A DNA stretch of 11,528 bases from Candidatus Heimdallarchaeota archaeon. Its GTDB lineage: Archaea; Asgardarchaeota; Heimdallarchaeia; Heimdallarchaeales; Heimdallarchaeaceae. Shown here piece by piece: positions 2,456 to 9,619 of the stretch. A program made the translations under genes and the position numbers. Below the pieces are notes generated by a model that was not told where the DNA came from, did no database searches, and was given only the letters and a program-made list of their open reading frames with translations. The stretch is from positions 1 through 11,528 of the forward strand of contig JAAFKJ010000121.1 of assembly GCA_021399395.1 (NCBI GenBank). Reading direction: 5' to 3'. Each line of letters starts with the position of its first letter. Positions within the stretch are counted from its first letter, which is position 1.

Positions 2456-4555
2456 TTATATATGATTTTTTAATACTATTTCCTTGTTGTAATCAGGAAT
2501 TAAAACATTTTTGTGCTCCTTTCTAAGTACTGAGTTGTCGGGGGTATGAACCATCACTTTTCTTCCCTTCAGTTGAGCAATAAAATCATTTAATCCTTGA
2601 GAATTTGTGTGCCCACTTATGGGAGCTGAAAAGACTTTCTGGTGATATCTTTGCTTTGCAATAGGTAGTGAATTTTGGAGTGCAAATCCTAAAGTGTTAG
2701 GAGCTTGATACCCACAAAGCAATACGCCTGTATTTGGGTCATCTTTGGTAGCATCGAGTAAGTTTCTTGCAGTTCCTCCTTGGAGCATGCCATGTCCTGT
2801 AACAACTATATCATTCTCCTCAAAATTGTTTAGCGAAACACCTTTAACAATGTCATAATTGCCCTTGATTCCCATAACTTTGGAAACGTCAGCTGCTAAA
2901 CCTGTAGTTTTAATATTCTTCTTTGTTGAAACTCTTAAGCGTTCTAAACGTCTTATCATTTCTTGAGTTCTTCCAACTGAAAATGCTGGGATGATTAACC
3001 TATCACAGTTTTCAGCTGCTTGTAAGATTACTGTGTTAGGATCTATATTCTCAGTCTTTCTGTTGTAATATGTACCATCAAATATGGTTACATCACTATC
3101 AACTGGGAATTTAGCTCCATTAAATAACTCACTTGAATCCAATGAAAAATCTCCTGTAAAGAATATACTTTTTCCAAATACATTGATTTTGTATCCTACA
3201 CTACCGAATATGTGCGAAGCGTGATAAGGCGTAACCTCAAAACCAGGACTCACTTCGACGGTTTCATTAGGCGTTAAGGGATTGAAAGCATTTGACAGAT
3301 TGATGATGTTGGAATTATTTAGATAAGCTGCTTGTAAGGGCGTAGCTTTCTTTTTAGTAATTCCATTCTTTCTTATGATTGAAGTAGTAGATTTATGCAG
3401 CTTCTCTGTTAGTATTTTGGTTGATTGTGTTGCATACCACATTTTACCGTTTTTAGGAGTAATTAAGTAAGGAAGTCCACCAGTATGATCTAAATGTGCA
3501 TGAGTTACGAGAACTGCTTTAACATACTTAAGTGCAGGATGCCATCTTGGTATAGAGTTATTTGCAACACTCATTCCAAAATCCATCAAAATAGCATTGT
3601 TATCATGTTGAACCAAGATTCCCATATTGCCGATATTTCCTCCTCCAAGGAAAGTAATTCTGATCTTTTGCGCGACTGAAGGACTGGAATAAGCATGCAT
3701 TGAAGCATATTCTTTTACTACCTCTCTAGGGAATTTAGATAATTTTTCCATTGAAACTGCTTTAGCGTCAATTTTGGAGAGGTGATTTTGTAAGATTGGA
3801 TCTACTACTGTAGGAACAATAGGAAACTTATCTTCTTTGTATTTAGCCTCAATCATCTTCTGAAATTCTGCCATAGAGGTTTTCTTTTCCAACCTTATTT
3901 CTGAACTTAAGGATTTTGAATAGAAATATGCTATTTCATTAAGTAAACCTTGGTCTATATGAAAGTCAAGATACTTAAAGAGTTTAGGTGAGATTGAACT
4001 TGCTATCTCTTCTAAATACTGCGATCGTGTTTTAAGATTAGATAGAATTCTGTCAACATCTTTTCCTATTGCTATGTCCTTTTCTGATAGAATATTTTTA
4101 GAAATGTTTTCTCGAGTTAATTTTGCATATTTTGAGAAGTTCTGAGGTTTAACACCCAATTTTCTTGTGAATCTTAAGAAGTTGTAATAGTTATATTTAA
4201 TTTTCTTTTTCTTAGAGTGAACCCAGAAACTATATACCAGAATCTCTTCTTCTAGAAGTAAATTTGTCTCCAGCTCTTGAAGAACTGATCTAAAAAGTTC
4301 GAAATTAATTGCATCTAACCAATATAGAGCAAATAAATAATATTCTGAAACTTCAGAGAAGTTCTCAGTTAATCCCACCCATGAAATATCAAAAATATTG
4401 ATTAAATTTGTATTTTTGCATATAAAATAGGGATCAGTACTGTTTTTTACAAAATCCCTACAATCATCGTAAATTTTCTGAAAGGTTTTGTTAAGTTTTA
4501 AATTTGGTTTTATTTTCATAATAAATTCCAAAAAAGTGGTCATATCGTTTGTCAT
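2456..4555 (-). CDS. Metallo-beta-lactamase/beta-CASP family nuclease (CPSF73/aCPSF-like) with long N-terminal extension
   Basis: The C-terminal ~400 aa carry ITFLGG, LMDFG, THAHLDHTGG (HxHxDH), HASHIFGS, FTGDF, DGTY (motif A), IIPAFSVGRTQE, GMLQGG, GYQAPNTLG, SGH (motif B) and VMVH (motif C). The N-terminal ~295 aa are unrecognised. Confidence 0.88.
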   Translation of the reverse strand: MTNDMTTFLEFIMKIKPNLKLNKTFQKIYDDCRDFVKNSTDPYFICKNTNLINIFDISWVGLTENFSEVSEYYLFALYWLDAINFELFRSVLQELETNLLLEEEILVYSFWVHSKKKKIKYNYYNFLRFTRKLGVKPQNFSKYAKLTRENISKNILSEKDIAIGKDVDRILSNLKTRSQYLEEIASSISPKLFKYLDFHIDQGLLNEIAYFYSKSLSSEIRLEKKTSMAEFQKMIEAKYKEDKFPIVPTVVDPILQNHLSKIDAKAVSMEKLSKFPREVVKEYASMHAYSSPSVAQKIRITFLGGGNIGNMGILVQHDNNAILMDFGMSVANNSIPRWHPALKYVKAVLVTHAHLDHTGGLPYLITPKNGKMWYATQSTKILTEKLHKSTTSIIRKNGITKKKATPLQAAYLNNSNIINLSNAFNPLTPNETVEVSPGFEVTPYHASHIFGSVGYKINVFGKSIFFTGDFSLDSSELFNGAKFPVDSDVTIFDGTYYNRKTENIDPNTVILQAAENCDRLIIPAFSVGRTQEMIRRLERLRVSTKKNIKTTGLAADVSKVMGIKGNYDIVKGVSLNNFEENDIVVTGHGMLQGGTARNLLDATKDDPNTGVLLCGYQAPNTLGFALQNSLPIAKQRYHQKVFSAPISGHTNSQGLNDFIAQLKGRKVMVHTPDNSVLRKEHKNVLIPDYNKEIVLKNHI

Positions 4556-4642: not shown

Positions 4643-5494
4643 CTATTCTTCTTCTTCTTTAGTGTCACTCTCAAGAAGACTACTGAAAGCGTCTCTTAAT
4701 TCGCCTTGTAAAGCTTCTTTCATTTGTTTTGTGGATCTTCCAGGTGCTGCTGGTGCAGCGGATGGTGTAAAGTCCTTCTCTTCATCATCATCGTCGGAGG
4801 TACGTGATGCTCTTTTTGCTAGTGCATCTTTAACTTCCATATTCAAAACCATAGAAGCTGGCATTGATCCGGTTTCTCCTGCAGCTTCTTGTCTTTCTCG
4901 TCGGTGTTCGTCTTGGTCTACTTTGGTTAAACCTGCTCGAACACCTTGAATGTCATTAGCACTAACACCAAAAGGACTGAAAGCTGGCGATGCTTCTCCT
5001 GGAGCTCCTGGTTCTCCTGGAACTGGTTCTGGTGCTTTCTGCAAACCAGCAGCTGCTTTCATTAAATCTGAACTACTAATTCCTCCACCTGTAGCTCCTT
5101 GAGCTCCTGAAGGTGCTGGAGCGCTACTTAAATCCGGTGCAGCTGATGAGAGATTGGGTGTGCTTGGCGCGGCAGAGAGATTGGGTGCACCTACTGAACC
5201 AGAACTTGCTGCTGCAACTGGTGCTGCAACTGGTGCTGCCGCTGGTGCTGCCGCTATTGGAGCTGCAGCTGGTGCTGCTCTAGCGGCTGGTGCTACTCCC
5301 CCTAATGCTCTTTCAACTGCAGTTATCCGTATGTCCAAAGAGTTAATAAAATCCTCCATCCTCTCTGTTGATTTTACCATTATTGCACCGAAATTTTCAA
5401 GCAATTTAGTAAGCTTCATAATGGCTTTTTTAGAGGGTTCTGCAGTACCAGATAAGAGACCGTCTAGATAATCATCAATTGACACTTGTATCAT
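4643..5494 (-). CDS. Hypothetical, largely disordered Ala/Pro-rich protein with N-terminal coiled coil, two WH2-like motifs and central/acidic-like segments (candidate actin regulator)
   Basis: Long ORF filling the gap between two real genes. The likely start is ATG 5494 (MIQVSIDD), preceded by GGAG and a TTTTATAT box, rather than the ORF-track 5539; GTG 5485 is also possible. The CDS is well supported; the function is an inference from the motifs described in the findings. Confidence 0.8.
   Translation of the reverse strand: MIQVSIDDYLDGLLSGTAEPSKKAIMKLTKLLENFGAIMVKSTERMEDFINSLDIRITAVERALGGVAPAARAAPAAAPIAAAPAAAPVAAPVAAASSGSVGAPNLSAAPSTPNLSSAAPDLSSAPAPSGAQGATGGGISSSDLMKAAAGLQKAPEPVPGEPGAPGEASPAFSPFGVSANDIQGVRAGLTKVDQDEHRRERQEAAGETGSMPASMVLNMEVKDALAKRASRTSDDDDEEKDFTPSAAPAAPGRSTKQMKEALQGELRDAFSSLLESDTKEEEE
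5117..5185 (-). repeat. Three degenerate intragenic peptide repeats P[ND]LS(S)A(A)P
   Basis: The translation reads PNLSAAP-ST-PNLSSAA-PDLSSAP, and the DNA shows GAGATTGGGTG twice. Confidence 0.7.
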
Positions 5495-5510
5495 GTAAAC
5501 TCCAAAAACG

Positions 5511-5526
5511 TGATATAAAAAGTCTA
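5511..5526 (-). promoter_or_regulatory. Putative TATA box for the Ala/Pro-rich protein gene
   Basis: The minus strand reads AGACTTTTTATATCA, about 20-28 nt upstream of ATG 5494. Confidence 0.5.
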
Positions 5527-5569
5527 TGATATTCCTCAAATAGTAAGATAAGAAATAAAATAGGATGTG

Positions 5570-7302: not shown

Positions 7303-8091
7303 ATGAAGATTTTCAAGATTTACTCTGAGTATGCTAGAGCATACCATGAGATGTACCAATCTATATTTGACTATGAAGAAGAATTTAAAATTTACGATAA
7401 ATATCTTTCAAAGATCAAAGCTAAAAAAATTCTGGAATTAGGCTGTGGGAGTGGAAACATGGCTAAATTGTTCATAAAGAACAAATATGATTACATAGGT
7501 TTGGACTGTTCTAAAGAAATGATAGCTCTATCAAAAGAGTTTGTACCCAAAGGTAAATTCCTTTTGGGCGATATGCGAAATTTAGAATTAGAAGAAACTT
7601 TTGACGCAGTTTTGGTAACAGGAAGAACTTTTACTCACATGACCACTAACCATGATGTAATGTTCGCCTTAAACTCTATTCATGAAGTATTGAACCACGA
7701 GGGTTGGCTGATTTTTGATAATTTTGACGCTTCAATCATATTTACAGATTTCAGAGAGACATCTCAAAACAAAACAATGTTTGAGAATCGTAAGTATCTT
7801 AGACTTAGTGAAACCTCCTTCGATTTTAATCATGGATGGACATGGAAATGGAAATCTCATTATGAGGTAATTGAGGAAGAGAAAAAAGAAGAATTTGAAG
7901 ATGAGATTACCCTTCGAGCATTTACAGAAGATGAATTGAGATTGTTTTTAAGCATTAACGGTTTCAAGGTCTGTAATATGGAAAAATCCGCTAATGCTAT
8001 CCTAACAGTAGCACAGAAAATAAATGAAGAAAAGACTAATGCTCAAAATATCTATTTCAAGCAGAAGTTAAATGATATCAGTGAAACTTAA
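7303..8091 (+). CDS. Class I SAM-dependent methyltransferase (small-molecule type)
   Basis: Motif I ILELGCGSG, GLDCSKEMI, GDMRNL, FDAV and LxxxGWLIFD, followed by a beta-rich cap typical of Methyltransf_25-like enzymes. The 3' end overlaps serS by 14 bp. Confidence 0.9.
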   Translation: MKIFKIYSEYARAYHEMYQSIFDYEEEFKIYDKYLSKIKAKKILELGCGSGNMAKLFIKNKYDYIGLDCSKEMIALSKEFVPKGKFLLGDMRNLELEETFDAVLVTGRTFTHMTTNHDVMFALNSIHEVLNHEGWLIFDNFDASIIFTDFRETSQNKTMFENRKYLRLSETSFDFNHGWTWKWKSHYEVIEEEKKEEFEDEITLRAFTEDELRLFLSINGFKVCNMEKSANAILTVAQKINEEKTNAQNIYFKQKLNDISET

Positions 8092-9619
8092 TTGTCTCAG
8101 GTAGTTTATCGATATATTTCAAGAAAGGTTCAGGCCAATTCTTTTGGTCTAATCCCTTTTGTGATATAAAGGCTGTTAGGAATCTCTCGAACGAACCACC
8201 ACAACATCCTGACCATAGTTCTACATTTCCTTCAGCTTTTACAGAGAAACCTTTAGGATATTTAGTCCCTATTATAGAAACATTCTGTATCTCTAACCAC
8301 TCACTTTCTTCTCGTGTTCCTCGGTAAGGCATGTATGCTTCATAATCAATGGTTCCTACTAGATCTGTTTCTTTGTCCATCTTCTGTTCACTAGCAGATT
8401 GTTGTAACCACCAAGGCATAACTTGTGCTTCTCTAACTTCTAGGTCAAGAACCTCATTGAAGATTATCCTCATCTTGTCTCTTACAGCTGTTCCAGCCTT
8501 CTTAGCTTGTTTTGGTGAACCAATAAACAATGTTTCAATACGATGGAGTTCATCGACTCGTTCGAAACCATATGCTGATCCAGCTTCATATCTGTAGGTA
8601 GGTCCTGACCAATCATAGATTTTTATTGGAAGACTGCTCTTTGCCAAGGTTTTTCCCTGCAACCAAGCCCAAAATGGAGGGCATTGAGCATATGATAAAC
8701 CTCCTATTGGTGCAGTTACTTTCTCAGCTAATTTTTCTGTAGGTATTGTTTTAGTAATTGTAATATAATCAGCTATCTCCTCAAAATATTCGGGTGTTGG
8801 TTCTTTAGGTTGAACTACAAAATATGGTTCAAATCCTCCTTGGTAAATTCCTTCAGCGTGTTCGGATCTTAACCAAATTGACCAATCTACAAGTTTTGGT
8901 ATCATCATCTGATCATACCCTAAAGGTTTGTAGATGTAATCGACCATTATCTGTTTCATAGCTTCTGCTAGAGTGGTTATTGTTGGAGATAATATCCATT
9001 GATTTCGATAGTTAGTTCTCTGTATCCAATTTGCTTCTTGCATAAGAGTTGTAGGATTCTGGTCTGTAAACAATTCTTTTTCCCCACTCGACCAGACTAT
9101 CTCATGGTGCTCTTTCTTCGCTCCATAGTGCTGTTTTGCTGCTTTATCATTAACTCTGCGAACAATACGCTCGATAGTTCCTTTTTCCACAAAATCTTCT
9201 GGTATTTCTGGGTCGATTTCGATTTTTGCGTAAAACTTGTCTTCTTTTTTGCTGAATTCGATTTTCTTTGTTAAAGGTAGAGTAAATTCTTTCAGAGGTT
9301 CTTGCTCAATTTCAGTTTCAATGGTATATTTTCTAAACTCAAATCCTCTCAATCCCACACGATATTTCTTACCAATGGCTTCAGCCAATTGTTTTCGAAT
9401 TCTAAGGAGTGCTACATGTGGTGGAACTGAATTAACTGAAGCAATAACAAAGCTCAGTTGATTTCCATCTGCATTGATATTTGTTATTGCAAACTCACCC
9501 TCCTTTTTGGATTCTTGTGTTTTTTCAACAAATTGATTAAAGAATTCTGTTAAATCTTCAGAACTTTCATCTGGTAGGGGGCCACTCAGATTGAAAGCAG
9601 CAGCTAAGTAATGTTTCAT
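8078..9619 (-). CDS. serS: Seryl-tRNA synthetase, methanogen-type (Zn-dependent SerRS2)
   Basis: N-terminal alpha/beta tRNA-binding domain with HVALLRIRKQLAEAIGKKYRVGLRG, plus YAQCPPF, class II motif 2 SGPTYRYEAG...GFERVDELHRIE, EWLEIQNVS and motif 3 WSGCCGGSFERF. The Cys/Glu/Cys zinc-ligand pattern is retained. Confidence 0.92.
   Translation of the reverse strand: MKHYLAAAFNLSGPLPDESSEDLTEFFNQFVEKTQESKKEGEFAITNINADGNQLSFVIASVNSVPPHVALLRIRKQLAEAIGKKYRVGLRGFEFRKYTIETEIEQEPLKEFTLPLTKKIEFSKKEDKFYAKIEIDPEIPEDFVEKGTIERIVRRVNDKAAKQHYGAKKEHHEIVWSSGEKELFTDQNPTTLMQEANWIQRTNYRNQWILSPTITTLAEAMKQIMVDYIYKPLGYDQMMIPKLVDWSIWLRSEHAEGIYQGGFEPYFVVQPKEPTPEYFEEIADYITITKTIPTEKLAEKVTAPIGGLSYAQCPPFWAWLQGKTLAKSSLPIKIYDWSGPTYRYEAGSAYGFERVDELHRIETLFIGSPKQAKKAGTAVRDKMRIIFNEVLDLEVREAQVMPWWLQQSASEQKMDKETDLVGTIDYEAYMPYRGTREESEWLEIQNVSIIGTKYPKGFSVKAEGNVELWSGCCGGSFERFLTAFISQKGLDQKNWPEPFLKYIDKLPETIKFH

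Follow-up and report, generated by a model that had tools for sequence, protein, structure and literature searches.

The window is the whole 11,528-nucleotide (nt) stretch of contig JAAFKJ010000121.1 from a Candidatus Heimdallarchaeota archaeon (assembly GCA_021399395.1). A gene on its minus strand encodes a protein with two peptides that are copies of one module, an amphipathic helix of 9–10 residues that is capped by G, N or S and followed by an extended L-x-K-(V/A)-(P/D). The two copies are repeated, selected linear motifs in a region predicted to be disordered. Our best guess from sequence is that the protein is a multivalent scaffold that may bind actin monomers. This reading is a tentative one, and a docking partner other than actin is nearly as likely. 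The gene, the motifs and the spacer between them are located as follows; pLDDT is the predicted local distance difference test score of an AlphaFold2 (AF2) model.

4643–5494, minus strand: whole gene, 283 amino acids (aa) plus stop codon, with ATG at 5494
5033–5083, minus strand: motif 1, residues 138–154; predicted helix 141–149, helix cap G150, then L151-Q-K153-A-P
4970–5032, minus strand: Pro/Gly-rich spacer, residues 155–175; pLDDT < 50, length variable among relatives
4919–4969, minus strand: motif 2, residues 176–192; predicted helix 179–188 ending in G188, then L189-T-K191-V-D

A repeated and selected linear motif

The minus strand reads GISSSDLMKAAAGLQKA at 5083–5033 and GVSANDIQGVRAGLTKV at 4969–4919, which are exactly the duplicated peptides of the original prediction. 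As that prediction also stated, they align without gaps, start 38 residues apart and are separated by a Pro/Gly-rich spacer, here 21 residues. The pair ranks first among the 31,375 non-overlapping ungapped 17-mer pairs in the protein, with a BLOSUM62 score of 38. The comparison with relatives rests on a search that returned 57 homologous proteins at E ≤ 0.01, all unnamed or annotated as 'hypothetical'. Thirty-six of these were aligned, with fragments and near-duplicates left out. The spacer has insertions and deletions among these relatives, including a long insertion in P0057.

A further claim was that the protein pattern is conserved while the DNA has diverged, and this is borne out. The DNA sequences of the two copies are identical at 24 of 51 bases. 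L151, K153, L189 and K191 are invariant in the 36-row alignment and across 17 orthologues, and G138 and G176 are kept in at least 90% of the 36 rows. The codon alignment of the orthologues, which covers 17 of 18 loci (L013 was not picked up by the search pattern), shows four codons in use at L151, three at L189 and four at G138. Invariant residues with changing codons point to selection on the residue and not on the DNA.

Nearly every copy has G, N or S just before the motif leucine, read as a helix cap, and L-x-K-(V/A) is followed by Pro or Asp-Pro. In the AF2 model, built on the 36-row family alignment (mean pLDDT 59, predicted template modelling score (pTM) 0.21), both motif helices stop just before the invariant leucine. 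Confidence in the motif region is moderate (pLDDT 56–71), and the model represents the free chain.

The region is rich in Ala, Gly, Pro and Ser, and the likeness of the two peptides might be a chance product of biased composition in low-complexity sequence. A score of 38 is reached by 9 of 1000 shuffles of residues 125–283. When each motif sub-profile is compared with the whole family profile, the other motif is not recovered as an alternative alignment, the alternatives lying elsewhere with E values of 0.59 and 0.69; within one protein, then, the internal repeat is real but its signal is weak. Against chance stand the first rank of the pair and the comparison of the two motif sub-profiles from the 36 relatives by hhalign, where they align in register with P = 5.1e-5 (windows picked by the analyst). 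The key residues are invariant despite synonymous codon changes, and sister families have three clear copies. Chance is disfavoured and scarcely credible as an explanation.

Several of the sister-family copies have LKKV or LKKA at their end, whereas LKSV, LQSV or LSKA is found in others. An alignment of 21 motif copies has an invariant leucine and a nearly invariant alanine at position –4. A profile of 12 sister-family copies places the open reading frame (ORF) of the window first among 7,882 frames of its own genome (E 0.0075; next 0.23), where the score is a sum over three weak stretches, namely motif 1, motif 2 and the C-terminal helix. The full 21-copy profile finds no other protein in this genome (next best E 0.36). 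The number of copies per protein varies from one to three. At L025:996-1958 (–), in a genus of the window's own family, a recent internal duplication of about 39 residues has turned two copies into three, the last ending in LKKV. A variable copy number together with such a recent duplication is typical of multivalent motif arrays.

Candidate partners of the motif

The closest known modules are those of the WH2/beta-thymosin type (Pfam PF02205), as in WIP, WASP, Spire and Cobl. Their hallmark is given in the available text of PMC7407642 as a helix of 9–10 residues followed by LKK(T/V) 'with some variations'. The predicted helices 141–149 and 179–188, followed by LQKA and LTKV, would fit this description, at moderate model confidence (AF2 pLDDT 56–71, free chain). 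With the helices as predicted, both systems would have a short helix before an extended L-(K/x)-K-(V/T/A), and both place their modules one after another in a Pro-rich, disordered part of a protein that oligomerises. The WIP helix spans residues 33–42 with hydrophobic residues L36, L37 and I40 and the motif leucine at L46 (PMC7407642, available text), and motif 1 has hydrophobic residues in the same i, i+1, i+4 pattern (L144, M145 and A148). LQKA and LTKV had been called divergent for having one basic residue each. This is correct, yet they are still within the known range of WH2 motifs, as the second WH2 of WIP reads LRST in the same text; a single basic residue is thus not disqualifying. Sister families also have copies with the canonical LKKV.

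Several genes that bear on an actin role are present in the genome, which is 82% complete. There are two eukaryote-like actins (448 and 437.5 bits with the Pfam actin model) and two two-domain gelsolins. One of the actins aligns end to end with yeast actin 1yag_A (537 bits). The actin residues that face the lysines of WH2 are D24, D25, E99, E100 and E334 according to the available text of PMC7407642. In the alignment to 1yag_A four of these five positions are acidic in the archaeal actin (E29, D30, E107 and E341), and E99 is replaced by N106. An actin-related protein (196.8 bits) is also present in a 491-aa open frame at G000:C149:11294-12529 (L003).

A second likeness is to the D1–D2 linker of Asgard two-domain gelsolins. 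The 'WH2-like' motifs reported there read LRRV, LKHV and LVDV, and these LKKT-like linker motifs contact actin in crystal structures (PMC9433394, available text). The linker motif is an Asgard-encoded L-basic-basic-V tetrapeptide, and the gelsolins of the genome read G-F-L-K-H-F at the linker site, with a glycine near the leucine as in the motifs described here. The two differ in that the cleft-binding helix of gelsolin is part of a folded domain, whereas it would be a free helix in this protein.

A number of results weigh against actin as the partner. A search of the family proteins with the Pfam WH2 profile was negative. None of the 36 members at E ≤ 10 and none of seven further homologues is matched (0 of 43). 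The profile has no match in the genome itself, where 18 candidates were scored, and in five sister genomes it reaches only eight places (9.8–12 bits, below the cut-off of 23.1 bits), none of them on contigs of this family. The 21-copy motif profile searched against the PDB has a single match, to CEP44 at E 0.76, and no WH2 chain; it does not find the gelsolin linkers of the genome. The leucine follows the predicted helix after one residue in motif 1 and none in motif 2, compared with three in WIP, and the last hydrophobic residue of the helix is 3–4 residues before the leucine, compared with six. Given this spacing, a peptide bound to actin would need a different placement. Conservation of the basic residues is not strict, as one sister copy reads LQSV. 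Neither the family alanine at –4 nor the G/N/S cap at –1 is, to our knowledge, a feature of WH2. The full-length profile finds no eukaryotic relative among 1.84 billion representative sequences. The gene neighbourhood consists of housekeeping genes, differs between families and gives no functional clue. In the main text of PMC13716822, as available, the proteins given for co-immunoprecipitation of Lokiactin are profilin, gelsolins and an ARF GTPase, with nothing like the present protein among them; Loki is without the long form of the family, which limits the comparison.

By sequence comparison, then, no formal test run here assigns the motifs to the WH2 family. The proposal that they are WH2-like stands in part. 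A repeated and selected motif, a predicted helix followed by L-x-K-V/A, is present, with LKKV in the sister copies, and the Pfam, PDB and spacing results speak against membership. An ELM-style regular expression for WH2 matches 8 of 44 family proteins, five of them at a motif copy, and does not match the protein of the window. It was rejected as non-discriminating, since it matches 41% of the frames of at least 150 aa in the genome (1.55 sites per 1000 aa).

The modules may instead dock another partner, such as the MIT domain of a Vps4-like ATPase or some Asgard protein, which the scaffold would gather. This is a serious possibility, though short of probable. The motif can be described as a generic amphipathic helix with a basic end, the actin-specific sequence tests all failed, and a gene with an MIT domain is found in the genome (50.1 bits). 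Two other conserved elements of the protein described below, a polar block in the coiled coil and the APNLS repeats, point to further partners. MIM1 motifs sit singly at the C-termini of ESCRT-III proteins, and their consensus has in common with the present motif an acidic residue, the hydrophobic positions –7, –3 and 0 and a basic residue after them. However, the strict form of this consensus is found in none of the 44 family proteins, and its arginine corresponds to the almost invariant alanine; with an MIT-domain gene in the genome, a looser relation may still exist. Here there are several internal copies and none is C-terminal. The AF2 helices end before the leucine, with G, N or S capping them at –1, which argues against one continuous MIM-type helix. 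There is also no Snf7 match in Pfam scans of the window protein and the 36 members.

Architecture of the protein and range of the family

Apart from the motifs, the protein has the following features. Helix limits marked AF2 are taken from the model.

5306–5440, minus strand: long N-terminal helix, residues 19–63; heptad pattern, most conserved block, AF2 pLDDT about 82–92 over residues 21–60
5084–5299, minus strand: Ala/Pro-rich linker, residues 66–137; disordered (AF2 67–137), pLDDT < 50
5123–5191, minus strand: three (A/T)P(N/D)LS repeats, residues 102–124, with a P-N-L core
4877–4915, minus strand: charged helix, residues 194–206 (AF2), directly after motif 2; E196, H197, E200 and R201 nearly invariant
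4784–4858, minus strand: helix 3, residues 213–237 (AF2)
4769–4795, minus strand: acidic patch, residues 234–242, ending in the nearly invariant F242
4649–4735, minus strand: C-terminal amphipathic helix and acidic tail, residues 254–282 (AF2, pLDDT up to 86)

The N-terminal helix, with its heptad pattern, is likely an oligomerising coiled coil. In the PDB profile search it matches only coiled coils (a tropomyosin-like chain at E 0.02, VP35 and haemagglutinin HA2), and the full-length profile adds one Nef match and nothing else. In the middle of the helix is an invariant polar block, K-S-T-E-R-M-E-D (residues 41–48, about 5351–5374, minus strand). A helix that only oligomerises would not usually contain such a block, which may serve in binding. 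The linker has a G+C content of 0.44–0.53, compared with about 0.35 around it, and accounts for the local rise in G+C. Within its repeats P104 is invariant and A103, N105, L106 and S107 are nearly so, N105 and L106 being present in at least 90% of the 36 rows. The PNL-type repeat is a second conserved short motif; profilin as its partner is a guess. The Pfam profilin model detects no gene in the genome, in a search that had no positive control.

Helix 3 is possibly a third, degenerate motif copy in which a basic residue has taken the leucine position; it occupies the place of the third motif in the sister families. Many columns between residues 247 and 277 are invariant in the alignment. In hhalign comparisons the motif profile bears a weak similarity to two other helices of the protein, the C-terminal one (P = 0.0022) and helix 3 (P = 0.022); an N-terminal control gives 0.41. 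The four helices may therefore have diverged from a single unit. The same values would suit helices that bind no partner but interact with each other, folding on the coiled coil or the C-terminal helix in an autoinhibited state or a bundle, or that lie on a membrane. Short forms in other Asgard families, which keep only the coiled coil and the C-terminal helix, agree with this. Such a role is nevertheless quite unlikely. The AF2 model has no confident packing (pTM 0.21, motif pLDDT 56–71), the helices are Ala-rich and weakly hydrophobic and would be poor membrane anchors, and the invariant L-x-K, which comes after the cap and precedes Pro or Asp-Pro, has the look of a recognition peptide in extended form.

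No Pfam family matches the window protein or its 36 relatives above the cut-off, and NCBIfam gives no match of meaningful score for any of four family proteins. The Pfam family EAD11 is found in two of seven proteins (best 23.9 bits, cut-off 26) and was dismissed as noise from charged helices. In the ESM Atlas the best cluster for residues 130–283 scored 0.76 and carries no name.

The order of elements resembles the V-V-C-A series of nucleation-promoting factors of the WASP/WAVE/WASH type. In such a scheme the motifs would be two WH2 modules, 213–231 the C helix and 234–242 with F242 the acidic segment. The N-terminal helix would be related to CCDC53/BRK1, and the protein would activate an Arp2/3-like complex. 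An ARPC4-like gene is present in the genome (30.6 bits, above the Pfam cut-off; G000:C174:14037-14345, L058), along with the actin-related protein. The N-terminal helix has weak matches to CCDC53 (PF10152) in 6 of 36 members (best E 0.0076) and in one of seven further homologues (E 5.3e-4). These matches score 13.4–20.9 bits, all below the cut-off of 24.6, and the PDB search shows only generic coiled coils here, with equal likeness to a tropomyosin-like chain, VP35 and HA2. ARPC2, ARPC3 and ARPC5 are not found, which is weak evidence as the genome is incomplete and the searches had no positive control and no match in a control genome. Factors of the WASP family with a VCA region have an acidic tail with a conserved tryptophan. 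The acidic patch here has no tryptophan and ends in Phe instead, and that of the sister families is acidic with no aromatic residue. The Myo1_CA model matches 1 of 36 members at E = 1. A factor of this kind is very improbable.

Another known system with a related layout is the EVH2 module of Ena/VASP, which consists of a G-actin-binding site, an F-actin-binding site and a coiled coil. Compared by layout only, it shares a Pro-rich stretch before short helical basic motifs, an oligomerising coiled coil and the logic of a multivalent oligomeric scaffold. It differs in that its coiled coil is C-terminal and not N-terminal. There is also no EVH1 in the present protein, and the repeats are of the PNL(S/G) type and not polyproline.

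The family is read as a scaffold protein that belongs to a single order of the Heimdall-group Asgard archaea, and it has no Pfam or NCBIfam name. Where the homologues carry organism labels, these are Heimdallarchaeaceae, Heimdallarchaeota or 'Asgard group'. Whole-genome searches across the taxonomic family of the source organism recover the gene from 27 of 31 genomes, from all five genera and from 6 of 6 high-quality genomes, and it is single-copy and full-length wherever the assembly is unbroken. In a sample of 251 genomes from the phylum, it is present in 23 of 25 genomes of the same family and in 4 of 10, 1 of 1 and 0 of 3 genomes of other families in the order. Two families of the same class have none (0 of 17 and 0 of 5), and elsewhere there are three weak matches with E of about 1e-4. 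These are short forms of 140–182 aa in three other Asgard families, at L076:476-961 (–), L077:382-930 (–) and L078:528-950 (–). All three combine a coiled coil and a Pro-rich linker with a C-terminal helix that resembles residues 254–277. The short form in L077 has an additional internal copy of the helix.

The profile search of the 1.84 billion representatives returns 15 proteins at E ≤ 0.001, all family-like except for one repeat protein. This protein, P0068 (572 aa, profile E 9.9e-6), has neither the coiled coil, the PNL repeats nor the C-terminal helix and was treated as spurious. Longer forms of 551–2000 aa were sought with the family alignment and none was found at E ≤ 0.001, which is weak evidence. 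The homologues in the same order have the same N-terminal helix, GGPNLGGAPS units, three motif copies, the acidic stretch and the C-terminal helix. The GGPNLGGAPS units sit where the window protein has its three APNLS-type repeats. Up to 14 near-perfect tandem units are found in L023:342-1625 (+), L021:387-1544 (+) and L024.

We infer actin as the partner of the modules, and with it every step that would follow binding. The N-terminal coiled coil would oligomerise the protein, and the long disordered arm would carry the short linear motifs. Each module would bind one actin monomer, as WH2 motifs and the gelsolin D1–D2 linker do, with its helix in the barbed-end cleft and its leucine and lysine following the acidic face of subdomain 1. 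With two to three modules in each chain, an oligomer could then gather or deliver several monomers. It might act as a nucleator or an elongation aid, in the manner of tandem-WH2 proteins or the actin-binding half of VASP.

Control of Asgard actin is said to rest mainly on profilins and gelsolins, and no nucleator or elongation factor is named in the available text of the two sources (bioRxiv 10.1101/2025.11.30.690169; PMC13716822). As far as these texts go, an assembly factor is therefore missing. No account of a WH2-type protein that stands by itself in Asgard archaea came up in literature searches, though supplements might list one; in the literature as available, WH2-like motifs are given only inside gelsolins. 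The family could be this missing factor in Heimdall-group Asgard archaea. In that case the tandem helix-plus-LKKV modules of an oligomeric scaffold would hold monomers, the PNL repeats may recruit profilin-actin and the C-terminal helix may hold the filament. This composite is rather unlikely as a whole. Were it true, filament building of the WH2, VASP or Spire kind would predate eukaryotes, and it would be either ancestral to WH2 modules or invented independently. If the modules do bind actin, the family is a concrete candidate, cheap to test, for filament assembly in the closest archaeal relatives of eukaryotes, and actin regulation through linear motifs would be older than eukaryotes. With a different partner, the protein would still be an order-wide scaffold without a name, in which short motifs of three kinds are conserved.

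Gene start and neighbouring genes

The minus-strand ORF in the open reading frame list spans 4643–5539 and would give 298 aa if read from a TTG. The ATG at 5494 is most likely the true start, and not the TTG at 5539. The database copy of the protein (P0002) is 283 aa, the same length as the ATG-started form, and among the 36 relatives in the alignment, 22 have their first residue at the methionine at 5494 or later. A TATA-like box inside the supposed extension also supports the ATG start.

5512–5522, minus strand: A/T-rich TATA-like box, read by eye, about 23 nt upstream of the ATG and within the TTG-started extension

The box suggests a leaderless transcript. The 15-residue extension (5495–5539, minus strand) is probably not translated. 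The extension peptide is annotated in some database entries and appears conserved there, which fits a conserved promoter rather than coding sequence. Two antisense ORFs lie opposite the gene, at 4662–4949 and 5154–5471 (plus strand; 95 and 105 aa). Both are rich in Ala, Gly and Ser and are mirror frames of the GC-rich Ala/Pro region; they are most likely not genes.

The local gene order is HD, UDP-glucose dehydrogenase, beta-CASP, this gene, threonine aldolase, seryl-tRNA synthetase and ABC. Two other genera of the family keep this order; the sister family does not, and there the gene is flanked by housekeeping genes that are unrelated. The beta-CASP/metallo-beta-lactamase nuclease (2456–4555, minus strand) begins with about 300 residues that no Pfam model matches, and it also adjoins the gene in two other genera (L072 and L074). 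The seryl-tRNA synthetase (8078–9619, minus strand) has an N-terminal tRNA_bind_4 domain (PF18490, E 7.4e-22). This domain is typical of the methanogen-type enzyme and is found here in a Heimdall-group genome.

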